Positions 1-15,022 of a stretch of DNA of 15,022 nt are shown one piece after another. The notes under the pieces were generated by a model. The model ran no database searches, was not told the DNA's origin, and saw only the letters and a list, made by a program, of their open reading frames with translations. The position numbers and the translations under genes are program-made. Source of the DNA: Candidatus Heimdallarchaeota archaeon (GTDB lineage: Archaea; Asgardarchaeota; Heimdallarchaeia; Heimdallarchaeales; Heimdallarchaeaceae); contig JAAFKJ010000098.1 in NCBI GenBank assembly GCA_021399395.1, positions 1 through 15,022 on the forward strand, read 5' to 3'. Numbering within the stretch: position 1 is the first letter of the stretch; each line of letters starts with the position of its first letter.

Positions 1-398
1 GCTTTTATCTGGTCTCTAATTTTTCTAAAGAACACCAATGTTTCTTCTTCAGTGCCTTCAAAGCTAGATGGATCTTCGAAAGACCAGTGTAATTTAGTTT
101 TTACTCCCGGTATAGCTGGACATTTTTCTTCGGCTACCGAACAAACAGTAATCACAGTGTCAAAATGTATATGTCCCAAGAAATCTGAAAGGTTTTTGGA
201 ATACTGTTCGGATAAATCATAATTTAATTCTTCTAGTACTTTAATTGTAAAAGGATTAATCCTAGTCCTGTCCATTCCCGCACTGAACACCTCAAAATGA
301 TCATTTGCCAGATCTCGTAAGAAAGCTTCCGCCATCTGACTTCTTGTGGAATTGTGACTGCAAATGAAGATTACCTTAACCTTATCTTTAGAATTCAT
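1..398 (-). CDS. arsC: Arsenate reductase ArsC, thioredoxin-coupled LMW-PTP family (3' end runs off the window)
   Basis: Manual translation from ATG at 398: MNSKDKVKVIFICSHNSTRSQMAEAFLRDLANDHFEVFSAG...VITVCSVAEEKCPAIPG...LHWSFEDPS...FRKIRDQIK. It has the CX5R P-loop (CSHNSTR), the two resolving Cys (TVC..., KCP) and the HWxFxDP motif. Not in the ORF track because no stop codon lies in the window. Confidence 0.93.
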   Translation of the reverse strand, partial: MNSKDKVKVIFICSHNSTRSQMAEAFLRDLANDHFEVFSAGMDRTRINPFTIKVLEELNYDLSEQYSKNLSDFLGHIHFDTVITVCSVAEEKCPAIPGVKTKLHWSFEDPSSFEGTEEETLVFFRKIRDQIK

Positions 399-480
399 AT
401 AGAAGAATAATCTTACAATATTAAAAATATCTCTGTGCAAAATCTGTTGAAGAATAAATCGATCCAACCATCTTATCGGT

Positions 481-516
481 TGTGCATTTGCTTGCACATT
501 TGCAATAGCTTATAAG
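481..516. promoter_or_regulatory. Inverted repeat TGTGCA-N6-TGCACA next to a TATA-like CTTATAAG in the divergent arsC / large-ORF intergenic region
   Basis: TGTGCA 481-486 and TGCACA 493-498, overlapping TTGCA-N4-TGCAA at 492-505, and TTATAA at 510-515. Another TGTGCA half-site is at 434-439. An operator role is inference. Confidence 0.3.
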
Positions 517-600
517 TGAAATTACAGTAAACTAAATTGTGTAAGCAGTTCTATTGTAAACCTGGGGGTTTAAGGTTGAATGGACTTAGGGGATTGATTT

Positions 601-3600
601 ATGCGAAATATCATAGGTACTACAAAAGCAATTATTATTATCATTTTTGTTGCTAGTTCACTAGTTTATCATGAGATGTCATCACCTGAAAGTACTGTAA
701 CTAACCATCAGGTAGATGCAATAATTTCTCTCCAAGATATAATCAATGATGTTTCTTCTGAACCTATAAGTATGAATCAGAAACCAGAAGGAATTTTGAG
801 AACCACATATATCGAAGGTGACTATGAATTACAAGGTTTCTTTACTCATAATGATTTTGTAGACCTGGATGATGACGGGAATACTTTCGTTTTAGAGAAT
901 TTTGATAGTATGAAAGGTAAAGCATCATCAGCAATTGGAACTCAATTTTTCATGGATTCTTCTGAACCTCAAACTTGGCCTAGTTTAGTTGATACTTACT
1001 TCCCTTTGACAGAAGATGTTTCTCCATTTCGCAATTCAAGTATATTTACTCCAGTCTTCTTTGAATCCACTAATATAGCTGGTAAAATACATGTGCTTTC
1101 TCATATTAATACTCAATATTTTGAGCCTGTCGATTTCACAATTCGGGTACGTGTTTTTATCTTCAATCCAAGCACAGAAATTTCAACCGAAATCGCTTCA
1201 GTGGAGGAGATTCTTCCTGATGGATTGCTCATTTCAAATCAACAAATATTTGATCTAACACTTAATAATACCTACTTAATTCCAGCTGGAAATCGATTAA
1301 AACTAACCTTTGAGGGTAAAGTAAATGATTTGAGTGCATCAGCAGAAGTTTCCTTAAGCACAAGTGATAAAGGTTCTGGCCAATATTCTTGGAATATTGT
1401 AGATGGTGTATACAGCAACAGCTATTCGTTTGGAACTTACGACCAAGTACTTGGAATGCAGATTCAGTACAAAAGTGCAACATTTCCAGATATAGTTGTT
1501 TCAGGGATATCCAACTCAACTCTTTATTACGAAGAACAAGAAGTATTTATTGATGTTTCTGGAGCAATTAGTAGTTCCTATCGTTGGGATTTGGAGAGTT
1601 ATGTTTCTTTTAGTAATTCGACAAGTACTTTCCTCCCTACTATCGATGGATGGCACTATCTAGAAGTTAGGGCAAGTGATTCTTTTAATAACACTGCAAT
1701 AGAAATTTATGATATAGGATATGATTCTACAGAGAGTTCTCTTACTTTAAACAATCCAACAAACAATTCAATAATCCTAGCTGGTTCGTTTCTAAACTTC
1801 TCAACTTATGGAGCAAATGAACTCACCTATGAGTGGGATAACAATGGTACAATATTTGATCTGTTATCCATACCAGAATATAATGTTTTAACACCCTCAA
1901 TTGAAGGATACCATAATCTTAGTGTAATTCTAAATGATACTTGTGTATATGATGAGTATTTCTACATTTTTGGTATAGACTCCTCAGCACCTCAAATCTC
2001 TTTGTTAAGCCTGACAAATGATACTCTTCAAGCTTCAGGGAAGCTTTTAGAAGTTGAGATTACTGATTTCTCACCTGATCTTACCATAAACTACAAGTGG
2101 GATGATAATATCTTTCTTCCTTGGTTACCAAGTGAAGGATCAATTTATCGAACTTACATCCCTGAGACAGAAGGTTATCACAATCTAACAATAACTGCTG
2201 AAGACTCATTAGGGTGTATTTCCAATCGTTTTTATCGATTCAATGTAAGTTCGGAGACTCTTCTTATTGAGCTTAGAACTATGGTTAATGAATCTTGGTA
2301 TTTAGGGGGAGAAACTGTTGAAGTAACTATAAGTGGTACTAATGATACAATATTATTCAGCTGGAATGATACTCCTTTACAAGATGGAAACCCATTCATG
2401 TTTGGAGGAACAATTCTTACTTTATCTGGGATTAACTCATTACCTAACGATATAGAACGTTATCATTATTTGAAAATTGTAGTAGGAGGTATTGATAACT
2501 TTGAATATATGTATATCTTTGAGTTTAGGATAGATAATGAAAATCCTATAATTGATTCTAGTTTTCTTGATCTCACCGATCAGAGGTTCAAAAGTGGGGA
2601 TACATTCACTTTCATTTTGTATGATAACGCAACCCAAATAGCTGATCTAATTGTTCAAATTTCAATTGATGGAGAATCTAATATCACTCTAAGTTTTCCA
2701 TTTGAATTGCATCTTTCAATATTCACTGATGGAATCCATAACATAACCATTTATGTTAGTGATATTGCAGGTAATATTGTAACTGAGTTTATTTCTTTCT
2801 ACATTGATTCAACTGCACCTGATATTGAAATAATATACTTTGAAGGCCTAGTTTCTCTACCTAATTCTAGTCTTTATGCACCATCTGGATCAACCATTGA
2901 GATATCAATTGATGATGCTGATCCCTCCTATACAGCAACATATTCATGGAAAGGTGGAGAGTATCAATCGTTTAATGAAACGATAATACTGAATTATGAT
3001 GATGATTTTGGTATTCTGATTATTAATGCAAGTGATTCTTTAGGAAATGAAGAGATAATTGTATATGAGTTAACTCTCGACAGTCTCGCTCCCACAGTTT
3101 CCCTAGTATTTCCATATGAACATTCAAAAATAAATGAACATACAAGTTTAATTTTCAATACAGAAGATATTTCACAACAAACGATTTCACATCTTGACTT
3201 CCATTGGGATATTTATCCAAGTTACACTCCTGAAATTTTCCCAGACAGCAAAGGTGATTTCGATCTAGCCTTGTTACCTCTCTATACTACAGGTGAATAT
3301 GCAACACTTTCAATTTATGCAGTGGATATTGTAGGAAATAATCAAACCTACTATTTTGTTTTTGAAGTAGATCTGACACCTCCTGATTCTACATTATTTA
3401 TTTTTGATGAAGAAACAGGGGAATATCACGATGCTTTAGACTATGATTATATTAAGGTTGGAGAAGAAATCTGGTATAACATTAGCACATCTCCTGATCT
3501 TTCTACATTTATTTACTACTGGAATAGTGAAGCTGGAGAAATTCTTGACAGCCCTTGGATAATTCACGCTCCTACAGAAGTAGGATCACATAATCTAACC

Positions 3601-4959
3601 GTTATTCTTCGGGATTCCACAGGAGAAAGCACATCCCCTAATGAAATAGAGCTGACTATTACTTTTCTAGTAAAAGATGAAGGTTACTTAACCATCTTAG
3701 AAACAAGTGATCATCATTGTTATTATGGTGAAGATGCCATTATTGAATTAAATCTTAAGAATACTTCGATGGTAAATCTCGAAATTAATGAAGTCAATAT
3801 TAGTGGCTCTATATTAGATATTCTCCACATCTCTGATTTTAATTATCGTGTTTTCTTTCCCACTAATTTGCTTGTAAGTAAAGGTAATTATTCTCTGTAT
3901 ATCTGTGTTGAATCTTCATACTACTTCGGACAAACTAACGAAAGTTATATGTTTGAAATAGAGATCCTTCCAATACCTTTAGCTATGGAATTATCTGTAT
4001 CTGATACAGAAATCGTTCAAGGAAGTTCTGTTGTGATATCTGGAATTCTCTCCTATCTTAACGGCACTCCCATTGCTGGAGTAGAAATAACTTTCTTGAT
4101 TTATATTTATTACAAGTCAGATCAAGGTTCAGCTAATGCTGCAATTGAAGGTTATGATGAAATAATTTCACTGAGTGACATCACTGGAGTAACTGGAGAA
4201 GCTTCAGTAGATTATATTTTAACTAAGGAAATTGAACAAATAGCCGTATCCGCTACCTTCGAAGGATCTAGCATTCTAGATGGGATCTTTCAGGAGTTTT
4301 CAGAGATAATAACCACAATAAAAGCAGGACTATCACCAGTCATCTTATATTCGATTGTTGGTGTAAGCGTTTTTCTATTAGGATTAGTAGCTTTTATTGT
4401 CTATAAAGCAACTAAACGTAAACCATTTGAGAAATATCTTGATAAAGTTTCAACCAATGATTTAGTTTTGAAAATAAATGAAATCTGTCCTGGAGTTATT
4501 CTTAGTATATTTGATCAGCGTAAGGGTCCCGTTCCTCTCATAAGTGATCATTCTTTTGATTATGATTATGGAGGAAGATTAAGTGTTGGCACAGAAAATT
4601 TCTTGCTAAAGATTTGTGATCAAGCATATTCGACTTTGGGCTTTGAAGACGTACATCAAGGTAGAAAGACAAGTGCGGTAAACTTGCCTAATGAAGGTCT
4701 TGTAGGGTTTGTTCATGCAATACAACTAGAAAATAAGGATTCAAGAGGAGGGTTAGAAAATCTCTCTGTTATCTTATTAACTCAAGCAGATTATGGTAAT
4801 TGCCTTCTAGCTTACAGTGATTTTATCTATGATCATATTGATGATTTAGTATCTAAATTGAACTCAAAGAAAGGTTTAGAAGAAATCAGATCCCAGATTG
4901 AAGAAATACGCCTTAGAACAACCCAAGTTATCTTAGCTGGTATAGAAGATTCAAAATAG
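601..4959 (+). CDS. Large single-pass cell-surface protein: signal/anchor, beta-sandwich domain, ~8 Ig-like repeats, TM helix, cytoplasmic longin/uDENN-like domain
   Basis: Hydrophobic N-terminus (AIIIIIFVASSLV). Repeats of ~85 aa with Y-x-W-D ... G-x-H-x-L-x-(I/V)-x-A-x-D-x-x-G-N and IDxxAPxI linkers. Many N-x-S/T sequons before the TM. TM at aa ~1247-1268 (nt 4339-4404) followed by KATKRK. The C-terminal ~180 aa contain GVILSIFDQRKGPVPL and FVHAIQLENKDSRGGLENLSVILL. Confidence 0.85.
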   Translation: MRNIIGTTKAIIIIIFVASSLVYHEMSSPESTVTNHQVDAIISLQDIINDVSSEPISMNQKPEGILRTTYIEGDYELQGFFTHNDFVDLDDDGNTFVLENFDSMKGKASSAIGTQFFMDSSEPQTWPSLVDTYFPLTEDVSPFRNSSIFTPVFFESTNIAGKIHVLSHINTQYFEPVDFTIRVRVFIFNPSTEISTEIASVEEILPDGLLISNQQIFDLTLNNTYLIPAGNRLKLTFEGKVNDLSASAEVSLSTSDKGSGQYSWNIVDGVYSNSYSFGTYDQVLGMQIQYKSATFPDIVVSGISNSTLYYEEQEVFIDVSGAISSSYRWDLESYVSFSNSTSTFLPTIDGWHYLEVRASDSFNNTAIEIYDIGYDSTESSLTLNNPTNNSIILAGSFLNFSTYGANELTYEWDNNGTIFDLLSIPEYNVLTPSIEGYHNLSVILNDTCVYDEYFYIFGIDSSAPQISLLSLTNDTLQASGKLLEVEITDFSPDLTINYKWDDNIFLPWLPSEGSIYRTYIPETEGYHNLTITAEDSLGCISNRFYRFNVSSETLLIELRTMVNESWYLGGETVEVTISGTNDTILFSWNDTPLQDGNPFMFGGTILTLSGINSLPNDIERYHYLKIVVGGIDNFEYMYIFEFRIDNENPIIDSSFLDLTDQRFKSGDTFTFILYDNATQIADLIVQISIDGESNITLSFPFELHLSIFTDGIHNITIYVSDIAGNIVTEFISFYIDSTAPDIEIIYFEGLVSLPNSSLYAPSGSTIEISIDDADPSYTATYSWKGGEYQSFNETIILNYDDDFGILIINASDSLGNEEIIVYELTLDSLAPTVSLVFPYEHSKINEHTSLIFNTEDISQQTISHLDFHWDIYPSYTPEIFPDSKGDFDLALLPLYTTGEYATLSIYAVDIVGNNQTYYFVFEVDLTPPDSTLFIFDEETGEYHDALDYDYIKVGEEIWYNISTSPDLSTFIYYWNSEAGEILDSPWIIHAPTEVGSHNLTVILRDSTGESTSPNEIELTITFLVKDEGYLTILETSDHHCYYGEDAIIELNLKNTSMVNLEINEVNISGSILDILHISDFNYRVFFPTNLLVSKGNYSLYICVESSYYFGQTNESYMFEIEILPIPLAMELSVSDTEIVQGSSVVISGILSYLNGTPIAGVEITFLIYIYYKSDQGSANAAIEGYDEIISLSDITGVTGEASVDYILTKEIEQIAVSATFEGSSILDGIFQEFSEIITTIKAGLSPVILYSIVGVSVFLLGLVAFIVYKATKRKPFEKYLDKVSTNDLVLKINEICPGVILSIFDQRKGPVPLISDHSFDYDYGGRLSVGTENFLLKICDQAYSTLGFEDVHQGRKTSAVNLPNEGLVGFVHAIQLENKDSRGGLENLSVILLTQADYGNCLLAYSDFIYDHIDDLVSKLNSKKGLEEIRSQIEEIRLRTTQVILAGIEDSK

Positions 4960-5008
4960 TTATTCTTGTCTTACTTCTTATCCAATTTATTAGATATCAT
5001 ATGTCTAA

Positions 5009-5030
5009 TTTTCTTCTTTTTTTTCTTTTT
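5009..5030 (+). terminator. Archaeal-type oligo-T terminator candidate
   Basis: TTTTCTTCTTTTTTTTCTTTTT about 50 nt after the stop of 601..4959, between convergent genes. Confidence 0.45.
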
Positions 5031-5054
5031 ACTATTAAATAAAGCAATCCTATA

Positions 5055-5984
5055 TTATTTCTTCCTTCTCTTATAAACAATTACTGTTGAAGTAACGATA
5101 AACGCTCCTATTCCATATACCCAAGAATGAGCTACAACTAATACCTCGTCATAAGAATCAATATAGTATTTGAAGACACCTTCAGTCTCCACTTCGAAAT
5201 CACCAGTTATGTTTGTTGAGAATTTGTAATCATTATAGAACTCATATAGTACTCCTTGAACATTGTAAGAGTAGTATCTACATACTTCCTCTCTGTAACT
5301 AACTCCTGGATACAGTGAACCTTCATATACATATGAGATTCTGTAGTGATATCCCTCAAACTTCTTTCTCTGAAATTTAAAAGAGTCTTTAAATTCTATT
5401 TCAAACTCCTTGTAAGCTAATTCATAGATTTCATAATCAGTTTGAAAGGAGAAATTACTGCTTAAAACTGGTAGAAATGTAAATCCAAATCCTCTCCAGA
5501 ACATGAATAAATCAACATGGATTTCCATCATATTAACGGGAACACCAAGGTTCGAACTCATTAAATCTAAACTAATTGGGTCAACAAAACCTATTTCTTG
5601 TGTTATGTTATCATATCTGTAGGTAACTTTGAAACTCTCTGTCTCATTTTCATATAACCAAGCTGCACGATAGAGGTCATAACAAGCTTGACTTTCACAG
5701 TGGATCATCCCCATGAAAACAGTCAATTTATTTGTTCGAAAAGAAATCTCGTTTTCTTCACTTTCCACATCCCATATAGTAATCTCCTCATAATTTTCAA
5801 TCAGAGGATTTTCTAGATTGTAATTGTAGTGTGTATCATCCCAAATGTAAGTGTAAGTTTCTCTTAGAGGACCCCAGTATTCTTCTTCTTGGGTTGTGTT
5901 GGAATTAGCAAAAAAAGATCCAAATAACAAAAACACTAAAATTCCACACAACAACATATTCTGATACAAATCTCTCTTCCGCAT
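5055..5984 (-). CDS. Hypothetical secreted, C-terminally membrane-anchored protein (paralog A)
   Basis: N-terminal basic + hydrophobic signal (MRKRDLYQNMLLCGILVFLLFGSFFA) and C-terminal TM + KRRKK. The track starts at TTG 5993; ATG 5984 is preferred given the TATA box (TTTATA) at 6019-6014. Confidence 0.85.
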   Translation of the reverse strand: MRKRDLYQNMLLCGILVFLLFGSFFANSNTTQEEEYWGPLRETYTYIWDDTHYNYNLENPLIENYEEITIWDVESEENEISFRTNKLTVFMGMIHCESQACYDLYRAAWLYENETESFKVTYRYDNITQEIGFVDPISLDLMSSNLGVPVNMMEIHVDLFMFWRGFGFTFLPVLSSNFSFQTDYEIYELAYKEFEIEFKDSFKFQRKKFEGYHYRISYVYEGSLYPGVSYREEVCRYYSYNVQGVLYEFYNDYKFSTNITGDFEVETEGVFKYYIDSYDEVLVVAHSWVYGIGAFIVTSTVIVYKRRKK

Positions 5985-6052
5985 GTGTATCAACTAGATA
6001 ATTATTTCATTACTATAAATATGTATGGAATCAGAAAGAAGTGAGGAGTTTT

Positions 6053-6976
6053 TCACTTTCTTCTCTTGTAAACAATTACTGTTGAAGTAATTAGAATCGC
6101 ACCTATTCCATATACCCAAGAATGAGCCACAACTAATGTTTCGTCATACGAATCAAGATAATATCTAAGGATACCCTTTACCTGAAGTTTATAATCTCCG
6201 GATTCATTAGTATAGTGCTTGATTTCGTTATAGAAATCATACAGAACTCCTTGAGTATTAAAAGAGTAATATCTGCTGATTTCCTCTTTGTACCATAATC
6301 CTGGGTATCTTTCATCCTCAACTGTGTAAGACATTTTATAGTAATACCCTTCAAATTTCTTTCTCTGAAACCTGAAAGTATCTTTGAACTCTATCTCAAA
6401 ATCTGGATAAGCTAATTCATATATTTGAAAGTCTGTTTCAAATGAGAAATTACTATGAAACACTGGTAGAAATGTAAAACCTAATCCTTGATAGTACATG
6501 AACAAGTTTTTGACTAATTCCATTGGATTAACAGGAACATCGGCATTCAAACCTAATAGGTCTAAAGTTATAGGATTGACAAATCCCAGTTCTTGAGTTT
6601 CGTTATCGTATCTATAAGTAACTTTGAAGCTTTCTGTTTCGTTTTCATATAACCAAGCTGCACGGTAAAGGTCATAACATGTTTCATTATCACAAGAAAC
6701 CATACCTAAGAAAACTTCCCACATATCAGTTCGAAATGATATTTCGTTCTCTAGGCTCTCCACATCCCAAATTGTTATTTCTTCATAAGTTTCAGTTAAT
6801 GGATCTGCAAAATTATAATTATAGAATTCATTATCCAAGATATAAGTGTAAGTCTCTCTTAAATCTCCCCAGCATTGTCCTTCTTGGGTTGTTTCGGAAT
6901 TAACTAGAAAAGATCCGAACATTAAAACTATAAATATTCCACACAACATATTCTGATACAACTTTCTCTTCCGCAT
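6053..6976 (-). CDS. Hypothetical secreted, C-terminally membrane-anchored protein (paralog B)
   Basis: Collinear with paralog A over its whole length, sharing an identical 26-aa block (CYDLYRAAWLYENETESFKVTYRYDN) and the tail LVVAHSWVYGIGA...TSTVIVYKRRK. Track start is TTG 6985; ATG 6976 is preferred. Confidence 0.85.
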   Translation of the reverse strand: MRKRKLYQNMLCGIFIVLMFGSFLVNSETTQEGQCWGDLRETYTYILDNEFYNYNFADPLTETYEEITIWDVESLENEISFRTDMWEVFLGMVSCDNETCYDLYRAAWLYENETESFKVTYRYDNETQELGFVNPITLDLLGLNADVPVNPMELVKNLFMYYQGLGFTFLPVFHSNFSFETDFQIYELAYPDFEIEFKDTFRFQRKKFEGYYYKMSYTVEDERYPGLWYKEEISRYYSFNTQGVLYDFYNEIKHYTNESGDYKLQVKGILRYYLDSYDETLVVAHSWVYGIGAILITSTVIVYKRRK

Positions 6977-7042
6977 ATGTATCAACTAGATTATTGTTTC
7001 ATTGCTTTAAATATGTATGGAATAAGAAAGGAGTGAAGAGGA

Positions 7043-7131
7043 TTATTTCTTTCTCCTTAGCTAATAACTATAAATCCAACTACAAATAGAATTAAACCTA
7101 GATAGACCTGGAAATCTATTATCGTTCCTAG
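7043..7131 (-). pseudogene. C-terminal remnant of a probable third family member (TM + RRKK tail, frameshifted)
   Basis: The minus strand reads LGTIIDFQVYLGLILFVVGFIVI, then after a 1-nt shift LRRKK-stop. The VY-to-end length matches paralog A (VYGIGAFIVTSTVIVYKRRKK), and the stop sits where the repeat period predicts. Confidence 0.45.
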
Positions 7132-7235
7132 CTAATATCTGGAACAATTGAAAAAATAATTTTCTTTTTTTATACTTGGTCTTGCAACTAGAATAATCCA
7201 TTTAAACAGAATCGCTTTTATGGTATATAGTGAAT

Positions 7236-7286
7236 GCTGGGGTTGCAGCTTAGTAGGTAAGGAATCGTTTTATTCTGCTCTCCAGC
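7236..7286 (+). promoter_or_regulatory. GC-rich stem-loop in the probable 5' leader of the wHTH-V4R pair
   Basis: GCUGGGG (7236-7242) pairs with CUCCAGC (7280-7286), and GCAG (7245-7248) pairs with CUGC (7275-7278). TATA-like TTTAAA at 7201-7206. Confidence 0.35.
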
Positions 7287-7304
7287 TATCTAAAAAGTGG
7301 TTCT

Positions 7305-7550
7305 ATGAGCAGCCCAACATATAGTGGATTAATATCATCTGAAGAAGCATTGGAAAGAGAAAAAAGTGCATTTATACTCGATAAAGCTATTCTTCGAGCT
7401 ATCTGCGAGGAAGGTCCTCTCTCACTGGAAGATATAAGAGTTCAAACTCTTCCTCTAGAAGCTGCTATTGGTGTAAAAATTGATCTTCCTACAATTCAAG
7501 AAATTATCAACAAATACATCAAGCAAGGGCTAATCTGGGAAAACAAATAA
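7305..7550 (+). CDS. Small winged-helix-like protein
   Basis: The pattern AILRAICEEGPLSLEDI ... TIQEIINKYIKQGLIWE resembles the wHTH consensus (ILxxL..GPxoxxEI ... LxxxGLI). It lies 12 nt upstream of the next gene. Confidence 0.65.
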   Translation: MSSPTYSGLISSEEALEREKSAFILDKAILRAICEEGPLSLEDIRVQTLPLEAAIGVKIDLPTIQEIINKYIKQGLIWENK

Positions 7551-7562
7551 TGGGGTGAAATT

Positions 7563-8045
7563 ATGGCAAGATTTTTCTCAAGAAAAGATCCAGCAAAAAA
7601 TTATTTAAATAAAGCAATTATAGGTTTAGGAGCAGGTTTAGTAAAATCTCAGAAAATTTTGAATCTCAGTTTCGGTCCTCAAGGTGCTATGGATATCCTT
7701 AGTATCTGGATAGGTCAGGAACTTGCCAAGGAATTACTGGCTCAGAAGAAAATTAAGGTCGGTATTTCAGATCAAGATTTGATTTCAAAACTACTTGATG
7801 AAATTCAACTTGCAGAAGACTTAACTTTTGAAAATGTTGAAGGGAAATCTTCAGTTACAATTCAAAATTGTTTAATCTGTCCAAAGAAAGTTGGTGGTTA
7901 TGATTTGGACGGTGATACAGCTTGTCCTGTTGGGGGTATTCTTATGGGTGCTCTCACTTATGTCAAAGGTGAATCTCCTTCCTTACCAAACATCAATCTT
8001 AAACCTGGTGAATTATGTAAAATTAGTTTGGACGTATCTCCTTAG
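7563..8045 (+). CDS. V4R-fold (Bet3/TRAPPC3-like superfamily) protein with four Cys, probably Zn-binding
   Basis: IGQELAKEL helix, VTIQNCLICP, TACPVGGILMGAL and GELCKISL match the V4R pattern. RBS GGGGTGA at 7552-7558. Confidence 0.75.
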   Translation: MARFFSRKDPAKNYLNKAIIGLGAGLVKSQKILNLSFGPQGAMDILSIWIGQELAKELLAQKKIKVGISDQDLISKLLDEIQLAEDLTFENVEGKSSVTIQNCLICPKKVGGYDLDGDTACPVGGILMGALTYVKGESPSLPNINLKPGELCKISLDVSP

Positions 8046-8055
8046 ATTTACATCC

Positions 8056-8074
8056 TTTCTTTTCTTTTTATTTT
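8056..8074 (+). terminator. Oligo-T terminator candidate
   Basis: T-rich tract immediately after the V4R stop, between convergent genes. Confidence 0.4.
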
Positions 8075-8090
8075 GATTCTTTAGATTATT

Positions 8091-9272
8091 TTAACAATAT
8101 TTGAGTGGTGTTTGAACTTCTCCAGGTGTTCTTGTTTTCAAAGGATCCATAGTTTTACACTCCATCAAAACTACATCTTCTTCAAAGATGAATCTACCCA
8201 TTTTATCTAATTGATTTTTTACTTCTTCCAATAGTTCTTTTGATAGCTTTTCCAGAAGGAAGAATTTTATTATTGGTTTTTTGCTACTTATGAAATCCCA
8301 GATACCTTTGACTTTCCCATTAATCAATATCGTAGTTGTAGCATTTCCAGATCGATCAAAGATGTAATCATAGAATTTTTGGTTTACATATCTTGTTCGT
8401 TCTTTATATCCCATCATATAAGGATCTAAATCGGGAAGAAGATTGATAATCGCTTGATCAGGAATAGCTGTTTGAGCAAGTCTTTCCAAGTCTCTAGTAA
8501 GCATATACTGAGGGTTAAGAAGCCCTTTGGGGTCTATCGGGTTCTGGGTCGCATAATCCTTCAGTTTTTCAAGTGCGATTCTCGTTTCTGTTATAGTAAA
8601 ACCGGCCCACCATGCAATATCCTTCAGTGTAACTGGTCCAAAACATTCCAGATAATACCTCACTAATTTCGTTCTACTTTCCTCTTCTGAATATTCTTCT
8701 AAATTCATATCTGGAAAATACTCTTCGAAAGCTGAGTAAGTGTGTCTTCTATCTCTCCAGCTTTTGATGGGTTTGTTCCTGATTATTTTGAACTGATCAC
8801 AGGCAAGATTTACCATCGCTGAAATATTTTCACTGCTGTTGAGTTCCTTCTTGATTTCTGAAACAGAGAGATTTCTACCTTCTAGAACTTTGAGAATGTC
8901 TTCTACTAGTTTCTGATACTTCATTTCAGATACACCTAGATTGACTAGATAATCCACATGACGCTTTGCATGTTGTTTCTTCGTTGCTTGAATTATCCAT
9001 GGAACAAATTCCTTGTTATGTATGAAAACTGTCTTTCTAATGCATCGGATTTTTCCAAGATTTTTCTTGACATATGCTTCTTCATCAAGTTGATTTCTAG
9101 AAAAATTATCTATGCGATTAAATAATGACAGATAAGGAGTTGTTTGACTTGTACTATGCAATCCTCCAATATCTCTCGTAACAATCATAATGTTACTCGT
9201 TTTCGATTCAGCTGTAAGGTGCTGTTTATGAAGGATATATCGATTTATTTGTTCTATAGAGAACTTTTCCAT
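8091..9272 (-). CDS. HTH_42 / AlkZ-family DNA glycosylase (winged-helix DNA-binding domain protein)
   Basis: Family motifs IGGLHSTSQTTPYLSLFNR, RCIRKTVFIH, LVRYYLECFGPVTLKDIAWWAGF, LLPDLDPYMMGYKER and ILINGKVKGIW. The 393-aa length is typical. Confidence 0.85.
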   Translation of the reverse strand: MEKFSIEQINRYILHKQHLTAESKTSNIMIVTRDIGGLHSTSQTTPYLSLFNRIDNFSRNQLDEEAYVKKNLGKIRCIRKTVFIHNKEFVPWIIQATKKQHAKRHVDYLVNLGVSEMKYQKLVEDILKVLEGRNLSVSEIKKELNSSENISAMVNLACDQFKIIRNKPIKSWRDRRHTYSAFEEYFPDMNLEEYSEEESRTKLVRYYLECFGPVTLKDIAWWAGFTITETRIALEKLKDYATQNPIDPKGLLNPQYMLTRDLERLAQTAIPDQAIINLLPDLDPYMMGYKERTRYVNQKFYDYIFDRSGNATTTILINGKVKGIWDFISSKKPIIKFFLLEKLSKELLEEVKNQLDKMGRFIFEEDVVLMECKTMDPLKTRTPGEVQTPLKYC

Positions 9273-9426
9273 ATATTAGGTTAAGTTGAGAGATATTTAT
9301 TATTTTTCTGTTGAGTTTTCCAAATTTAGATGTGTAAATATGAATCGTGAAGATAGGATGATTGAAGAAGAATTTAGAAAACATCAAAAATGCAAAGAAA
9401 TTGAAAGAAATAGTAGAAAAGTAGTC

Positions 9427-9885
9427 TTATCCATTCTTTTCAAACTCTAACAACCATTTCTTACGATCTAATCCCCCTCCATAACCTACAAGTTCTCCAT
9501 CACTACCAATTACTCTATGGCAGGGGATGATTATACTCACAGGATTCTTTCCATTGGCATTTCCTACAGCTCTAACAGCTGTTTCCTTGCCTATTCTAGA
9601 AGCAAGATCTTTGTAAGAAATAGTCTCTCCATAAGGGATTTTGAGAAGTTCCAACCAAACCTTTTGTTGGAATTCTGTTCCAGCTGGTGCTATAAGGAGG
9701 TTAAACTGTTTCCTTTCTCTTTGGAAATATTCATCTGTTTGAGCTAGAGCTCTAGCTAGTACATCAGGTAAATCGGTTGTACAACCTTCTTTTTCAACGA
9801 AATTACAGCTATAAATGAATGTGTCATCACTTGTGATTTCTATAAAACCTATTGGAGAATCATAGTATGCTCTATATGTGTTCAT
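9427..9885 (-). CDS. ogt: Methylated-DNA--protein-cysteine S-methyltransferase
   Basis: YDSPIG, GTEFQQKVW, IPYGETISY, AVRAVGNANGKNP, active-site PCHRV, GYGGG, KKWLLEFE. Confidence 0.97.
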   Translation of the reverse strand: MNTYRAYYDSPIGFIEITSDDTFIYSCNFVEKEGCTTDLPDVLARALAQTDEYFQRERKQFNLLIAPAGTEFQQKVWLELLKIPYGETISYKDLASRIGKETAVRAVGNANGKNPVSIIIPCHRVIGSDGELVGYGGGLDRKKWLLEFEKNG

Positions 9886-10072
9886 TACCTCATCTCTTAG
9901 AGCAATATTTGATATCCTTTTTTAATTGTTCTTATTTTCCTAAAATAACTTCTTGTGCTATTCCTTTGTTCCAAAGAGGTTAACCATCTTCTACGCTTAT
10001 TCTCTTAAAAACTATTGAGGCTACAAAACGTTTTTATAAACCTTAGATTATTTCAGCTCGGTGAAATTAAAA

Positions 10073-10306
10073 GTGGCATCAGCTTACATTTTAATAAATT
10101 GCGAGATAGGCGAAGAAAGCAGCGTTATGACTCAACTCAAGGACATGCCGAACGTAAGTGAAGTACACATCGTTTACGGCGTTTATGATCTTATTGCTAA
10201 GATTGAGGCAGAAGATACTGACTCTTTGAAAAAGATAGTTACAGAGAACCTCAGAGTCTTGGAAAAAGTACGATCAACCATGACCATGATTTGTGTCGAT
10301 CAATAA
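10073..10306 (+). CDS. Stand-alone Lrp/AsnC ligand-binding (RAM) domain protein
   Basis: AYILINCEIGEE...VSEVHIVYGVYDLIAKIEA...VRSTMTMI, with no HTH. GTG 10073 is preferred over track start 10061 because GGTGA (10060-10064) then serves as the RBS. TATA-like TTTTTATAAA at ~10031-10040 and a T-rich tract after the stop. Confidence 0.9.
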   Translation: MASAYILINCEIGEESSVMTQLKDMPNVSEVHIVYGVYDLIAKIEAEDTDSLKKIVTENLRVLEKVRSTMTMICVDQ

Positions 10307-10413
10307 TCCTTTTTTCCTTTCTTTCTTCCTTTCTTAGTCCTTAGTTTTTTTATTAATTCTAGTATTTCCGCTTATATTCTTGTATCTTTGTTTTGAATCT
10401 AGAATGAGAAATT

Positions 10414-10683
10414 CTATATATTTTTCAGTTTTTCTAATAAATTATTTACTTGATCTTCGAATTCGCTAGGATTTGATACATTCCTTAAGAAGAATTCTAG
10501 AGGTTCTATTGCTTTTTTATCCTCAAATTCCCCTATAGCATCAATTAAGTTATAACTAGAAAAAATTAATGATTCCATTTCTAAAAGTAGGAGAGAAAGA
10601 AATCTAGAGCATATTCTGTTCTATCTCCTAATAATTTGTTTAGATAATATTCCAGTAAAGTATTATAATCTGATCCTAATTTT
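10414..10683 (-). pseudogene. Degraded gene or short ORF with a HEAT/PBS-lyase-like repeat
   Basis: ORF 10578..10414 (54 aa) reads MESLIFSSYNLIDAIGEFEDKKAIEPLEFFLRNVSNPSEFEDQVNNLLEKLKNI. A protein-like fragment, KLGSDYNTLLEYYLNKLLGDRTEYALDFFLSYF, lies just upstream in another frame. Confidence 0.4.
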
Positions 10684-10733
10684 TATTCAATTATTTTTAG
10701 ATTCTATATTTCTCATCTTTTAGGATTGTTCTT

Positions 10734-11600
10734 TTATTCAATTCCTTTTATTGGAAAGACTATACCATATTCATCAAAGTATTTTATTAACTCCAACTTC
10801 TCTATCCCCAGATCTTTTGCAAAATATTCTACCCCAACTATTGTAATATGTGAATTCAGATCATAGTCCTTGTATCCTGGAACACGACGTGTTACAATTG
10901 TCGGGCCAAGGAAATCATGTTTTACAGAGGAGGTTCCACTCAGCGGTAAAATGAAATCAACGATTTCACCATCACTTTTGGTTATTATTGCACCAAATTT
11001 CTTTACAAGTATATCAAGAAACATCCTCATTGGGAAAAATTCCTGTTTGATAGATTTTACTATATGGTTGTTAATGGAATCACACATCAATCCACGTATT
11101 TTCTGAATCCTTGTTTTATCTCTGTATGATGAAGGTCCTCTAAAAACAAACTTGCGGTCACAAAAATCACAAAATAAACGAGCTACTTCCTCATAAGGTG
11201 CTCTTTTTGCCAATTTCATCATATATTTCACGAGACCAACGCTATTCTCATCGTTCTCTTTGTCTTTTATAACCTCATAAGCTCGAACCAACTGTTGAAA
11301 TATCATAAGTTCTAATCTGTCATTAGGATACCTTGTTTGCGTGCTATCTATCTTCTTTAAGTAATATTCCAGTTTTTCTGAATTTCCTTTTATTATGTAA
11401 TAAATCATCATCTCAGTGTATACTGTAAACAGTTCTTTTCTTACTTCAGACAACGAATTGGATTTGTGGATTTTTGCGATATTCTCAATTAGTGCTTCAA
11501 CATTGCCTTCTTCATCGTTTTCAAGCAAGTTTATAATTTCCTTTCTAACTCTCTTTGCTTCATTTATAGTTTTGATCTTTTCTGGTTGATTCTGAATCAA
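10734..11600 (-). CDS. Hypothetical protein: helical (TPR-like) N-terminal region and HicA-like C-terminal domain
   Basis: 288-aa ORF with a TTG start and a good RBS (GAGGTGA) just upstream. Amphipathic helices in the N-terminal part. The C-terminal pattern is described in findings. The domain calls are tentative. Confidence 0.7.
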   Translation of the reverse strand: MIQNQPEKIKTINEAKRVRKEIINLLENDEEGNVEALIENIAKIHKSNSLSEVRKELFTVYTEMMIYYIIKGNSEKLEYYLKKIDSTQTRYPNDRLELMIFQQLVRAYEVIKDKENDENSVGLVKYMMKLAKRAPYEEVARLFCDFCDRKFVFRGPSSYRDKTRIQKIRGLMCDSINNHIVKSIKQEFFPMRMFLDILVKKFGAIITKSDGEIVDFILPLSGTSSVKHDFLGPTIVTRRVPGYKDYDLNSHITIVGVEYFAKDLGIEKLELIKYFDEYGIVFPIKGIE

Positions 11601-11769
11601 TTTATCACCTCAATTGAAGTAAGAATCTACTTAATGTTCCAACTTAACAATAAAAGATTGTTTTTCAATTTAAAAACCTATTTCCGAATTTTTCATCATG
11701 CTTCATGAAAAACCTCTAATTATTCTTTACAGTCAAAACTTTTTTAATTGTTTCAACTTATCTTGATGT

Positions 11770-11960
11770 GATAACAATGTCAATCCCTGTGCTTTGCTTA
11801 TAGGTTCATGCGAGGTGAACTCGCGCTAATATTTCTAATGATCTGGAGTAGTAGCGGGTAGCTTACATTGTTGTCGGTTTCTTTCAGTTTTATTTCTGAA
11901 TCGAGTCTTATCAACAATTTTCTTACTTCTGCTACTCTTTCAGAGCTAAGTTAATCACAG
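11770..11960 (+). ncRNA. Putative structured RNA (leader or stand-alone ncRNA), family not recognised
   Basis: Closing stem 11787-11800/11947-11960 (12 of 14 positions pair), hairpin GCGAG-GUGAA-CUCGC at 11810-11824, and a ~100-nt imperfect hairpin at 11842-11944. Many G-U pairs favour the + strand. TATA-like TTTTAATT at ~11742-11749. Confidence 0.55.
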
Positions 11961-12008
11961 CATTTCCGAAACTAATAAAACAACACATGAGAAATAAGAG
12001 GTGAAATA

Positions 12009-12998
12009 ATGAGTACTAATCGCTATACCAAACTTAAATGGTATAGATTCAATATCGCAAGAAGAATAAGAAATCTTGAAGGAGAAGAACTAATAGCTGA
12101 GTTAGAGGATATTATCGAAGATATCAAGGAGAAAAAGCTCGACAAATTAGGTGTTTTCAAGATTCAGCTTCAAGAATTAGAGAACATGATTGCTGAGTTA
12201 AAAGAAAAACCTAAAGCTAAAGGACGTCAGTATGATCCTTTTTATATTCCAATTTCTGGAGATGGTCGCATTGCTCTTTTTGGTCTTTCTAATGTTGGTA
12301 AGAGCACTCTGATGAATGCTATAACCAATACCGATGTCAAAACTGGAGCTTATCTTCACACTACTAGAGAGGCTCTTGCAGGAACTTGTGAATATGAAGA
12401 TATTCGCATTCAAATTGTAGACTTACCCGGGTTCTTGGATTTCAGAGAAGATTGGAATACCAGCAAGCAGATAGTTCGAGTCACTAGAACAAGTGATGCA
12501 ATAATGATGGTTATTGATCTTTCTATGGACATAGATCGACAATACAACTTCCTTATGAAACAGCTGGAAGATTCGAAATTGATAGTTAATGGTGAGACTC
12601 CTTACAAGCTTAGTATTATTGCAACTAAAGGAGACTTAGTAGGTTCCAAAGAACGTTATCAAGAACTTCTTTCTAAAACTGATCTACCTGTTTGTCCTAT
12701 AACTATTAAATCTGAAGAATCGCTTGAAAAACTCAGAGAGGCGCTCTTCCAACAGCTTGATGTAATCAGGGTTTATACCAAAAAACCCGGTGGAAGGGTG
12801 GAATATGGTAAGCCCTTTGTACTTCCAGAAGGTACCATCGTAGCTGATGTGACCAAGAGAATTCATACAAGTTTTCTTCAAAACTTCCGATATGGAAGAG
12901 TATGGGGAACATCTGTTGATCATGAAGGTCAACATGTTGGTCTTGAGCATGAGCTTGCAGACAAAGATGTTCTAGAGATAGTAGTTTCTAGAAAATAA
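12009..12998 (+). CDS. DRG/OBG-family GTPase with C-terminal TGS domain (short variant)
   Basis: G1 GLSNVGKS, G2 YLHTT, G3 DLPG, G4 TKGD. The TGS region reads IRVYTKKPG...RVWGTSVDHEGQHVGLEHELADKDVLEI. RBS GAGGTGA at 11998-12004. Confidence 0.92.
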   Translation: MSTNRYTKLKWYRFNIARRIRNLEGEELIAELEDIIEDIKEKKLDKLGVFKIQLQELENMIAELKEKPKAKGRQYDPFYIPISGDGRIALFGLSNVGKSTLMNAITNTDVKTGAYLHTTREALAGTCEYEDIRIQIVDLPGFLDFREDWNTSKQIVRVTRTSDAIMMVIDLSMDIDRQYNFLMKQLEDSKLIVNGETPYKLSIIATKGDLVGSKERYQELLSKTDLPVCPITIKSEESLEKLREALFQQLDVIRVYTKKPGGRVEYGKPFVLPEGTIVADVTKRIHTSFLQNFRYGRVWGTSVDHEGQHVGLEHELADKDVLEIVVSRK

Positions 12999-13079
12999 TC
13001 TAGAACTCTTCTCCAATCTTTTTTAATGTCATTTTCTGTCCACATGTTTTAAAATGTGAAAAGTCTATATATATTCGGT

Positions 13080-14528
13080 ATGACTTCTATTACACTACAT
13101 GGAGCTGTTGGAGAAATCGGAGGGAATAAGATTCTAATTGAAACTGGTTCAACAAAACTCTTCTTTGATTTTGGTCTTAGTTTCGGCAAATTCGGTGAGT
13201 ATTTTACTCCTTATTTACAACCAAGAAGATGGAGTTTCGTCAAGGATTATATGAGTCTAGGTTTACTACCTGATTTAACTGGTCTTTATCGTCAAGATTA
13301 CGAAAAACGTTTTAGAGAGAGTACTAAAGAACCGAAATATGATGGTGTGGTTTTATCTCATCCTCATTTAGATCATGCTGGCTTTGTTTCTTATCTTAGA
13401 CCTGATATACCTGTCCACTGTTCTCCAGGTTGTAAAGGTATTCTAGAAGCTTTTGAGGCAACATCTTGGGGTTTTCATGAATATACTCACATTAAGGAAG
13501 CTTTCAAATTTAGGCCTGGTAAACGAGATGCTACAAAGATGGTAAAAGACAGAAATAGTGTCATTCCTCGAGAAATATGTAAATTCAAACCTTCTTTCAA
13601 AATTGATGATTTCACCATTCATACTTACCCTGTAGATCACTCTGCTCCTGGATCAAATTCCTTTGTGATTGAAACTACTGAAGGAAATATTGTCTATACT
13701 GGGGATATAAGATTCCATGGAAGAAAGGGGAATTTCAGCGATTTCTTTGTAGAGAAAGCTAAAACATTTGATCCTGTTCTAATAATTACCGAAGGAACAA
13801 ATATTGATTCACCTACTGCTTTTGGGGAGCTAGATTTACAACAAGCTCTTTTTCCATTAATTGATGAAATTACTGGTTTGGTAATAGTAAACTTCCCAGT
13901 AAGAGATTTCGACAGAATGAGATCATTTATCGAAGCAGCTAAACAAACAGATCGCTCTCTAATTATCAGTTTAAGACAAGCTTATACACTCAGGAAACTT
14001 GAAGAAAATGGTGTCACTAACATCCCAAGGGTGGATGAAGTGGGCATATTTGTACCAAAGAAAGGTTGGGGAGTTCATAATGATATTAACTATCCTATAG
14101 AAATCCAAATGCAAGATTATCAATCTTGGGAAAATGAATTCATTGAACATGATAATAGTGTTACAGCTGATGATATCATAGAAAATCCAGACAAATACAT
14201 CTTCCGATGCGATTTTTCAGAATTGAAGTATCTCTTTGATATTCAACCTCCAAAGGGTTCGATATACATCCGTTCTGTAACTGAACCTGTTGACGAAGAG
14301 ATGGAACTAGACCAAAGAAAAGCTGACAACTGGTTAAAGTTTTTTGGACTCTATCCCTATAAACAACTTCACTGCTCAGGTCATGCTTCAGGTTATGATT
14401 TACAAGAGATGATAAAGAAGATCAATCCTAAGAGTGTTATGCCTATCCATACAGAGAAACCAGCTGATTTCAGTAACTTACATGGTAACGTAATTCTGAG
14501 TAAACTAGGCGAAATACATAATCTCTAA
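13080..14528 (+). CDS. MBL-fold beta-CASP nuclease (RNase J-like)
   Basis: GAVGEIGGNKI, DFG, SHPHLDH, VDHS, YTGDIRFHG, ITEGT, HCSGHAS and PIHTE motifs. ATG 13080 is preferred over track GTG 13056, with TATA-like TTTTAAAA at 13047-13054. Confidence 0.9.
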   Translation: MTSITLHGAVGEIGGNKILIETGSTKLFFDFGLSFGKFGEYFTPYLQPRRWSFVKDYMSLGLLPDLTGLYRQDYEKRFRESTKEPKYDGVVLSHPHLDHAGFVSYLRPDIPVHCSPGCKGILEAFEATSWGFHEYTHIKEAFKFRPGKRDATKMVKDRNSVIPREICKFKPSFKIDDFTIHTYPVDHSAPGSNSFVIETTEGNIVYTGDIRFHGRKGNFSDFFVEKAKTFDPVLIITEGTNIDSPTAFGELDLQQALFPLIDEITGLVIVNFPVRDFDRMRSFIEAAKQTDRSLIISLRQAYTLRKLEENGVTNIPRVDEVGIFVPKKGWGVHNDINYPIEIQMQDYQSWENEFIEHDNSVTADDIIENPDKYIFRCDFSELKYLFDIQPPKGSIYIRSVTEPVDEEMELDQRKADNWLKFFGLYPYKQLHCSGHASGYDLQEMIKKINPKSVMPIHTEKPADFSNLHGNVILSKLGEIHNL

Positions 14529-15022
14529 CGGAAGCAAGTTAGAAATCTTCCGCCATCTATACTCACTGTTTCACCAGTTATCCATAATGCTTTATCTGAA
14601 GCAAGGAATAATATCAAATCAGCAATCTCATCTGGTGTTCCTACTCTTCCTAATGGATGAGTAGTTCTACTGTGTTCTAGAAATTCTTCATATCTTGTAT
14701 CACTCATCCCACTTTCTTTGTGCAAGCTAGTTATTACTACACCGGGATTAACTGCATTTACTCTTACACCAAATTCTGCTAATTCTAAAGCAGAACATCT
14801 TGTTAGATGATCAAGCCCTGCTTTGCTAACACAATAAGCTAAGATATTTGGAAAAGCTCTCACACCAGTTACACTTGAGACATTCACAACATTTCCTTTA
14901 CTTTCCTTGAGAAAAGGTAGAGCTGTTTGCATTAGAAGAAATACTGATCTTAAGTTGATATCCATCATATAATCGAATTCGTGAATTGGTGTATTCATGA
15001 TATTTCCAGACCGGAGTATCCC
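14525..15022 (-). CDS. Classical SDR family oxidoreductase (5' end outside the window)
   Basis: The frame stays open to the window edge (GILRSGNI precedes the track Met). Motifs NVSS, catalytic YCVSK, GVRVNAVNPG, PLGRVG, ITGETVSIDGG. The stop overlaps the convergent nuclease stop by 4 nt. Confidence 0.95.
   Translation of the reverse strand, partial: GILRSGNIMNTPIHEFDYMMDINLRSVFLLMQTALPFLKESKGNVVNVSSVTGVRAFPNILAYCVSKAGLDHLTRCSALELAEFGVRVNAVNPGVVITSLHKESGMSDTRYEEFLEHSRTTHPLGRVGTPDEIADLILFLASDKALWITGETVSIDGGRFLTCFR

Follow-up and report, generated by a model that had tools for sequence, protein, structure and literature searches.

A gene was investigated in a 15,022-nucleotide stretch of DNA from Candidatus Heimdallarchaeota archaeon (contig JAAFKJ010000098.1, positions 1 to 15,022), hereafter the window. 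The gene occupies a single very long open reading frame (ORF) at positions 601-4959 of the forward strand and encodes a protein of 1452 amino acids (aa), which with high confidence is a single-pass surface receptor carrying a cytoplasmic longin tail of the FLCN/NPRL2/SMCR8 class. The tail probably binds or regulates a small GTPase. The complete proposal, in which the cytoplasmic longin regulates a Rag-type GTPase and most likely does so as a dimeric arginine-finger GTPase-activating protein (GAP), is given an even chance of being correct. A preliminary description of the segment 4339-4959, which extends from the transmembrane (TM) helix up to the stop codon, had interpreted the protein as a candidate receptor-GAP. 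The analysis confirmed the underlying observation and supports that interpretation as a candidate, with GAP activity predicted from sequence motifs and a structural model.

Gene and membrane topology

The window has a G+C content of 34%, and the ORF was assigned from an ORF list and its translation. Homologues that align over the full length are 1431-1584 aa long and derive from Asgard/Heimdallarchaeaceae records. Since these homologues align end to end, the possibility that ORF 601-4959 is an over-long gene call was rejected. Hydropathy analysis revealed only two strongly hydrophobic segments in the protein. The first, peaking at aa 3-23, belongs to a predicted N-terminal signal peptide or signal anchor (aa 1-23; 601-669, forward strand), and the second, at aa 1245-1268, is a single predicted TM helix (4333-4404, forward strand) followed by the basic sequence KATKRK. 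Most complete genes among the family loci described below also have a detectable N-terminal hydrophobic segment, and its retention by homologues supports the ATG at position 601 as the start. The database gene call for an identical protein (P0002) is 1427 aa long, 25 aa below the ORF, with the tail 100% covered; if the difference is N-terminal (window 601-675) the signal segment would be lost, and annotation pipelines may mis-call the start.

The ectodomain contains 30 N-x-S/T sequons compared with 14.0±3.3 in composition-preserving shuffles, of which none of 2000 reached 30, while the tail contains one. The sequon distribution, the N-terminal signal and the basic stretch past the TM helix place the tail in the cytoplasm, in agreement with the topology assumed in the preliminary description. 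Thus, the protein is by sequence prediction a type I receptor with a signal or anchor, one TM helix, a probably N-glycosylated ectodomain outside and the tail inside.

Predicted fold of the cytoplasmic tail

The motifs quoted in the preliminary description are all present in the translation, as verified with a script: GVILSIFDQRKGPVPL at aa 1298-1313 (nucleotides 4492-4539), ENFLLKICDQAYSTLG at aa 1332-1347 and GFVHAIQLENKDSRGGLENLSVILL at aa 1369-1393, with R1382 encoded by the AGA codon at nucleotides 4744-4746. The 183-aa tail, in which tail numbering plus 1269 gives the protein residue number, was modelled with AlphaFold2 (AF2) from an alignment of 24 sequences. The model, with a predicted local distance difference test score (pLDDT) of 90.0 and a predicted template modelling score of 0.87, has secondary structure elements in the order b1, b2, a1, b3, b4, b5 and helices, which is the longin topology; in tail numbering these are E29-36, E40-48, H62-77, E88-93, E98-108 and E116-126, followed by helices. 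A juxtamembrane linker with two short helices (tail H5-13 and H16-26; aa 1269-1297; 4405-4491, forward strand) precedes the longin domain (aa 1298-1451; 4492-4953, forward strand). In protein numbering, the longin domain comprises b1 (1298-1305), b2 (1309-1317), a1 (1331-1346), b3 (1357-1362), b4 (1367-1377), b5 (1385-1395) and C-terminal helices (1396-1451). Both the AF2 model and the Foldseek comparisons given below agree with the longin superfold of b-b-a-b-b-b-a(-a), a five-stranded sheet against helices.

Two features of the domain recall GAP-type longins. Alignments located a GP motif in the hairpin FDQRKGPVP at the b1-b2 turn (aa 1304-1312; 4510-4536, forward strand), where G1309-P1310 begin b2, and alignments together with the AF2 model placed a candidate arginine-finger loop, RGGLEN (aa 1382-1387; 4744-4761, forward strand), between b4 and b5, with R1382 in the seven-residue b4-b5 loop. 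Because b5 pairs antiparallel with b1 in the longin sheet, the b4-b5 loop and the b1-b2 turn would lie on one edge of the sheet. The equivalent loop is presumably the one that holds R164 of FLCN, whose counterparts as arginine fingers are R78 of NPRL2 and R147 of SMCR8. In the covered parts of a recent study of longin domains (PMC12290439, Traffic 2025), the GP motif is described as closing the loop that leads into the second strand, close in space to the arginine finger, and as confined to FLCN, NPRL2, SMCR8 and C9orf72, with none in FNIP2, NPRL3, adaptins, TRAPP or DENND. The GP motif of the receptor tail occupies this same position, at the end of the b1-b2 loop or start of b2.

The fold was compared with the PDB by use of Foldseek, which returned four matches at E≤1e-3: two chains of 8yqg, 8dhb_J and 9v0j_A. 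The best was the Lokiarchaeal longin 8yqg (E 8.4e-7; TM-score 0.68 on the target; root-mean-square deviation 3.3 Å over 161 columns). The chain 8dhb_J belongs to an FLCN-FNIP2 entry of the active FLCN GAP complex, the subunit being either FLCN or FNIP2 (E 3.1e-4), and its 19% identity over 140 columns was the highest among the PDB fold matches of the tail. The third entry, 9v0j_A, is from GATOR1 (E 8.5e-4). Matches weaker than 1e-3 included the Lst4 longin 4zy8 (1.6e-3), 6nzd_H and 6ulg_N (FLCN-FNIP2), 9o5d_D (GATOR1), chains 7mge_C and 7o2w_A of C9orf72-SMCR8 entries, and DENND10. Judged by their length, the GATOR1 chains 9v0j_A and 9o5d_D are probably NPRL2.

Sequence comparisons pointed in the same direction, weakly but with consistency. 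The window tail matched PF11704 (Folliculin) with 11.7 bits and E 0.22 over aa 1370-1432, a segment that covers R1382. When 46 family tails were scanned singly, PF11704 matched 32 of them at E≤1 (best 5.2e-4) and any other family at most 2. A scan of the tail against NCBIfam gave no match. A language-model look-alike search (Atlas), which provides leads only, returned an Asgard cluster with NPR2 on 19% of its members (0.88) and a eukaryotic LST7/Folliculin cluster (0.75).

These comparisons bear on whether the tail could instead be a guanine nucleotide exchange factor (GEF) that activates neighbouring GTPases in the manner of the DENN, TRAPP and Mon1-Ccz1 longins. Most characterised longin-containing regulators are GEFs according to the covered text of PMC12290439, and such a role was proposed for an Asgard longin/DENN module in the part of the preprint of Liu et al. 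considered here (10.1101/2020.10.19.343400). However, the nearest eukaryotic neighbours of the tail in both fold and sequence are GAP longins, and it is the pairing of GP motif and arginine that distinguishes GAP longins in the former account (PMC12290439). Exchange activity is considered very unlikely.

Conservation of the tail and its architecture

When the tail was searched exhaustively with phmmer against 1.84 billion representatives, 60 proteins reached E≤1e-3, and 27 of these reached E≤1e-30. In 58 of the proteins, which are 85 to 2596 aa long, the match lies at the C-terminus; the other two, multi-stretch matches that were not C-terminal, were regarded as spurious. A TM helix shortly before the domain was found in 50 of the 57 newly returned proteins, and the remaining seven comprised four fragments that start inside the tail, the two spurious matches and one protein without a TM helix (P0080). 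Source names were looked up for 10 family proteins; four were named, all as "hypothetical protein". In addition, one genome per species (GTDB) was scanned with the pattern FDQxxGPxP, a procedure that finds only members keeping the pattern. The scan yielded 53 confirmed loci, at most three per genome. Their labels are almost all Heimdall- or Hod-archaeal, and the complete family genes among them encode 981-2321 aa. A TM helix lies ahead of the tail in 51 of the 53 loci, the exceptions being L033 (a broken gene) and L049 (a 172-aa ORF). The ectodomain-TM-longin layout, for which conservation across Asgard genomes had been in question, is therefore conserved in Heimdall- and Hod-archaea.

The GP hairpin is present in 53 of 53 loci, as follows from their selection by the FDQxxGPxP pattern, and the motif R[GR][GRK]x[ED]N in 52, the 53rd ending at the contig end before the motif. 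In an alignment of 46 tails (A2) reaching down to 21% identity, the invariant residues in tail numbering are G29, F35, D36, Q37, G40, P43, D71, F79, R113 (R1382), G114, G115 and N118, and P41 and E117 are at least 90% conserved, results which uphold the conserved RG motif of the preliminary description. A 74-row alignment likewise kept the GP hairpin and the arginine column, with the following glycines varying in two rows (ARGRFEN and TRRRKEN). The 60 phmmer matches together with the residues invariant in 46 tails place the observation far beyond chance. Identity in the tail was 70-73% with close homologues and 42-50% with farther ones, versus 56-60% and 33-42%, respectively, in the ectodomain, so that conservation is highest in the tail. 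In a maximum-likelihood tree of the 46 tails, rooted only at the midpoint, the window group adjoins a 24-row clade with support of 99/99; this clade includes a 21-row group of which 20 members are linked to Rag genes.

Rag GTPase genes adjacent to the sister clade

The neighbouring ORFs of the 53 loci were clustered and cluster representatives scanned against Pfam, with tblastn added for genes cut by contig ends. The sister-clade loci (L004-L033) have a characteristic gene order: a Ras-like GTPase gene, the receptor gene (duplicated in tandem at some loci), a long gene of the Gtr1/RagA family and a second Gtr1/RagA-family gene. The Ras-like gene (about 240-275 aa; PF00071, 28 bits; weak PDB matches to Rab, Cdc42 and Sec4) is on the same strand and, where directly before the receptor, 3-210 bp upstream, with exceptions of 2061 bp (L018) and 561 bp (the broken L033). 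The long Rag gene (490-686 aa; PF04670, E 7e-26) is downstream and shares the strand of the receptor gene. Among the 16 loci where a complete Rag ORF comes directly after the receptor, the gap is 51-113 bp in 15 and 233 bp in the broken L033. The second Rag gene (about 407 aa; PF04670, E 2e-32) is on the opposite strand and convergent.

By tblastn, 24 of the 30 loci have the long Rag gene immediately downstream of the receptor gene or its tandem copy. A 25th locus, L016, has the L010 gene as its tandem neighbour, and the Rag gene comes after L010, giving 25 of 30. The five loci not counted include L032 and L029, with 2 bp and 825 bp of downstream sequence, respectively, and L005, which has a small Rag-like gene 87 bp upstream; no Rag gene was found within about 8 kb at L006 and L018. 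The second Rag gene and the Ras-like gene each occur in 17 of the 30 loci. Profiles of the Rag groups matched Gtr1, RagA and RagC chains in the PDB (best 3.3e-29 and 2.2e-14; Gtr1 3.3e-29, RagA 1.2e-26), and 19 of 19 matches of the long Rag group were to the Rag family. In both groups HKxD replaces NKxD, which is typical of Rag GTPases. All three genomes with a window-type gene also carry a Rag-linked paralogue (L001/L009, L002/L031 and L003/L019). The Rag linkage of the sister clade constitutes independent support for coupling of the tail to a small GTPase. Co-folding of the L004 tail with the two neighbouring Rag-like proteins and two GTP gave 0.00 in two runs without controls, a result that speaks neither for nor against binding.

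Further observations were made on the Rag-linked blocks. The block at L004:3210-11302, from Ca. Heimdallarchaeum aukensis, and its equivalents in L008-L031 comprise the Ras-like gene, the receptor gene, a long Rag gene whose product has an acidic low-complexity C-terminal extension, and the convergent short Rag gene. The extra C-terminal region of the short Rag has invariant C336, C339, H379 and C381, suggesting a zinc-binding module. The block at L033:7075-10867 is decayed, with receptor fragments of 94, 117 and 80 aa and the Ras-like and short Rag genes likewise in pieces; its long Rag gene is intact.

Arginine-less tails in Hod-archaeal operons

In the Hod clade, the family gene is found in operons of two or three large surface-protein genes separated by gaps of -3 to +17 bp. 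The operons were observed at L034-L048, L050 and L051, for example L034:298-3927, 3924-8534 and 8537-11518. The product of the upstream gene likewise has a C-terminal TM helix and RGG-type tail, and that of the downstream gene has a TM helix and a tail of roughly 220 aa at its C-terminus. This third tail could be aligned with the family across 167 columns (hhalign probability 94%, E 9.6e-8), with Q-x-E-G in place of the family Q-x-x-G-P and G-x-G-Q-G in place of A-R-G-G, so that both the GP motif and the arginine are lost. An Atlas search with the arginine-less tail gave no usable match. The occurrence of arginine-bearing and arginine-less tails side by side bears a resemblance to the FLCN/FNIP, NPRL2/NPRL3 and SMCR8/C9orf72 pairs.

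The neighbourhoods also bear on a GTPase-independent role, in which the tail would be a module for dimerisation or sorting, or a cytoskeleton adaptor, in an adhesin- or S-layer-like protein and the Rag genes beside the paralogues would be unrelated to its function. The ectodomain has an adhesin-like look, the window clade is without a GTPase neighbour, and the Hod operons are without GTPases in 19 of 20 loci. Against this role, a Rag gene is directly downstream in 25 of 30 sister-clade loci from many genomes, and the known partners of this fold class are small GTPases. A role independent of GTPases is thus regarded as distinctly unlikely.

The arginine-less tail is relevant to another alternative, that the receptor is a membrane anchor or platform whose tail holds a Rag-type GTPase dimer in the manner of the Ragulator/EGO roadblock domains or the SRX longin, with the arginine and GP residues serving for binding. 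Longin and roadblock domains are commonly GTPase platforms, as stated in the covered part of PMC3747258; MglB and Ego3 are among the weaker Foldseek matches of the tail; the Rag-like neighbours bear roadblock-like C-terminal halves of their own; and the Rag synteny fits a platform equally well. Nevertheless, the strict invariance of R-G-G and the GP hairpin in 46 tails is more typical of a catalytic site, the GP motif is reported only in GAP longins in the covered text of PMC12290439, and the paralogous tail devoid of both R and GP shows that the fold can persist without these residues. A platform function is considered unlikely.

Proposed mechanism

In the proposed mechanism of a receptor-GAP, the protein displays a jelly-roll and eight Ig-like repeats outside the cell and the longin tail inside. 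The tail would dock at the cytoplasmic side of the membrane on a small GTPase of the Rag type, or a related one, by contacting its G domain. Aided by the neighbouring GP hairpin, R1382 would act as the arginine finger that speeds GTP hydrolysis. By analogy with FLCN-FNIP, NPRL2-NPRL3 and SMCR8-C9orf72, the active form would probably be a longin dimer. Clustering of ectodomains driven by a ligand or by contact may set the GAP activity, as in plexins, and the copy encoded in the window would work in trans, its Rag GTPases being the products of genes located elsewhere in the genome. In the eukaryotic longin complexes, as described in the covered part of PMC8213707, a dimeric longin pocket holds one arginine finger.

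Several results weigh against the receptor-GAP proposal. The best structural neighbour, 8yqg, is an archaeal longin of unknown activity, and the eukaryotic chains gave modest TM-scores (0.36-0.50 when normalised to the query). GAPs are a minority among longin and DENN modules, most of which are GEFs or platforms. No member of the 46 tails reached the PF11704 gathering threshold (23.3 bits), and searches of PDB sequences with family profiles found no FLCN, NPRL2 or SMCR8 but only designed helical proteins at E>1. Unlike FLCN and SMCR8, the protein has no DENN domain C-terminal to the longin in a Pfam scan, its last residue being aa 1452, directly behind the longin helices. For this reason, the earlier designation as a folliculin/SMCR8-like longin (uDENN) holds for the longin fold, the GP hairpin and a weak similarity to PF11704, while "uDENN" expresses a resemblance of fold only. 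No Rag, Arf or Ras GTPase is encoded in the window or beside the orthologues L001-L003 (0 of 4); the only GTPase near the window gene is of the DRG/Obg type with a TGS domain, 7 kb away. No partner longin was identified for the window protein, and neither a roadblock nor a longin partner lies next to the window gene or its three orthologues. Finally, Rag-like neighbours occur in only one (L039) of the 20 loci of the distant clade L034-L053.

A broader proposal is offered only tentatively. Heimdall- and Hod-archaeal receptors might control a Rag pair through the arginine-finger longin, with the arginine-less tails forming the non-catalytic half of the dimer; the Rag-longin GAP module used for nutrient signalling in eukaryotes might have originated as an outside-in receptor pathway at the plasma membrane that preceded the lysosome and TOR, and the window gene would be a diverged member acting in trans.

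Comparison with known systems

Longin and DENN proteins are long established in Asgard archaea. The preliminary description was accordingly correct in treating longin/DENN-like domains as already reported there, as in the covered portions of the preprint of Liu et al. and of PMC12290439. The latter describes Asgard longins of the FLCN/SMCR8 type that combine a GP motif with an arginine finger, and suggests that they act as GAPs for Rag or Arf-related GTPases; their class, both motifs and the places of the motifs, and the emphasis on Heimdallarchaeia are the same as for the receptor tails. In its main text the word "transmembrane" occurs 0 times, and the parts covered contain no ectodomain, receptor architecture or gene neighbourhood. 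Some of its 15 Asgard sequences (Data S1) could be members of the receptor family; Asgard is unmentioned in two other supplement files.

Liu et al. (10.1101/2020.10.19.343400), in the part of the preprint covered, describe FLCN-like longin-DENN proteins of Heimdallarchaea, NPRL2-like longins fused to two-component domains, and an operon of LAMTOR1-like, Rab-like and DENN genes in which the GTPase is non-Rag. The idea of a GAP-type longin wired to a prokaryotic-style sensory input is shared with the receptor, although the fusions involve two-component modules and the operon a non-Rag GTPase, whereas here an Ig-repeat ectodomain and Rag-family neighbours are found. According to the covered part of Tran et al. 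2024 (PMC10933270), genome layout is of little help in matching GTPases to GAPs or GEFs, and operons of strain MK-D1 generally do not join GTPases with longin or roadblock genes.

Likeness to FLCN/Lst7 lies in the longin fold, the sub-threshold match to PF11704, the arginine in the b4-b5 loop, the GP at the b1-b2 turn and the likely Rag clients. FLCN is soluble and has a DENN domain and an N-terminal zinc region, whereas the receptor tail has neither and is membrane-integral; no FNIP-like partner is known for the window protein. FLCN-FNIP is a GAP for RagC/D, NPRL2-NPRL3 (GATOR1) for RagA/B and C9orf72-SMCR8 for Arf. GATOR1 and C9orf72-SMCR8 are composed of cytosolic multi-domain subunits recruited to lysosomes, while here the longin is the tail of a surface protein. 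The Lokiarchaeal Roadblock-Longin 8yqg, a crystal dimer by its entry title, has the longin fold in common with the tail at 14% identity but is fused to a roadblock domain and not to a membrane receptor; a full-text literature search, with most subscription journals outside its coverage, found no paper on PDB 8yqg or 8yl2.

Plexins, which are confined to animals, are transmembrane receptors with a cytoplasmic Rap GAP activated by ligand-induced dimerisation. As here, they are single-pass proteins with an Ig-type ectodomain and a small-GTPase GAP tail; their RasGAP-like fold is unrelated, and the likeness is one of analogy only. The preliminary description named no characterised example of such a coupling; receptor-GAPs of another fold exist in the plexins. 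In a full-text search that took in few subscription journals and did not extend to the sequences of the Traffic paper, no publication turned up on a single-pass receptor of this architecture, on its linkage to a pair of Rag genes or on arginine-less paralogous tails. The longin class concerned and both motifs are known; the architecture, the Rag linkage and the arginine-less tails are apparently new.

Ectodomain

A membrane-distal beta-sandwich (jelly-roll) was located at about aa 67-292 (799-1476, forward strand) with AF2 and Foldseek. The AF2 model of aa 40-400 (pLDDT 87) is all-beta and consists of the beta-sandwich followed by the first Ig-like domain. The jelly-roll matched the non-catalytic C-terminal domain of CocE/X-Pro dipeptidyl peptidases (Foldseek E 1.5e-6); other matches were GH2 sugar-binding domains and the MAM-Ig-FN region of the receptor phosphatase PTPRK (E 1.5e-4). 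The gene upstream of the orthologous receptor at L001 (L001:187-1440) encodes a PepX_C domain (E 1.6e-35), the jelly-roll family that the N-terminal domain of the receptor structurally resembles.

Eight tandem Ig-like repeats (1498-3672, forward strand) were delineated with a hidden Markov model iterated from the first repeat, at aa 300-375, 383-460, 468-549, 558-645, 659-736, 750-827, 835-924 and 943-1024. Two Pfam matches exceeded their cut-offs: Big_13 (aa 706-736), with 32.5 bits against 27, and PKD (aa 954-1012), with 26.2 bits against 23.5. The tandem repeats and Pfam matches, along with the excess of sequons, bear out the earlier assignment of an Ig-repeat ectodomain to a surface protein. 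The membrane-proximal segment between the last repeat and the TM helix (aa 1025-1244; 3673-4332, forward strand) is conserved in homologues. Overall, the ectodomain looks like that of an adhesin or receptor.

Other genes of the window

The gene at 12009-12998 (forward strand; counterpart L002:9170-10033) encodes the DRG/Obg-type GTPase with a TGS domain. It was rejected as an unlikely client of the receptor, being a GTPase of the translation type with unrelated genes between. The synteny of this gene, the receptor gene, an AsnC-like gene and a 160-aa gene of unknown function is kept between the window and L002, where an IS605 OrfB/TnpB-like gene with a Cas12f1-like TNB domain (L002:6029-7288, reverse strand) lies between the receptor gene and the window-syntenic genes. 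Two tandem paralogues at 5055-5993 and 6053-6985 (reverse strand), with products of 312 and 310 residues, are identical at 214 of them; both products have a hydrophobic segment at the N-terminus and, at the C-terminus, a membrane anchor that ends with KRRK, and neither a Pfam family nor a counterpart among the fetched loci was found for them. The window further encodes an AlkZ-like DNA glycosylase (8091-9272, reverse strand; E 8.5e-42) adjacent to a second DNA-repair gene, for an O6-methylguanine-DNA methyltransferase (9427-9885, reverse strand; E 2.5e-36), and a metallo-beta-lactamase protein with an RMMBL RNA-specificity domain, a beta-CASP type nuclease (13056-14528, forward strand). A low-molecular-weight phosphotyrosine phosphatase/ArsC-like gene (3-497, reverse strand), which runs off the window and is divergent from the receptor gene, was not found beside the orthologues.

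Significance

Asgard archaea contain many small GTPases, longin proteins and roadblock proteins, and it is hard to tell which regulates which. In the family described here, a GAP-type longin is hard-wired to the membrane and, outside the cell, to a large domain for sensing or adhesion. The gene trio or quartet of the sister clade points to Rag-family GTPases as candidate cognate partners. In eukaryotes, Rag GTPases are the clients of FLCN and GATOR1, and in this way the origin of the Rag/FLCN/GATOR1 switch becomes directly testable with recombinant proteins. The results suggest outside-in signalling to small GTPases in archaeal relatives of eukaryotes.

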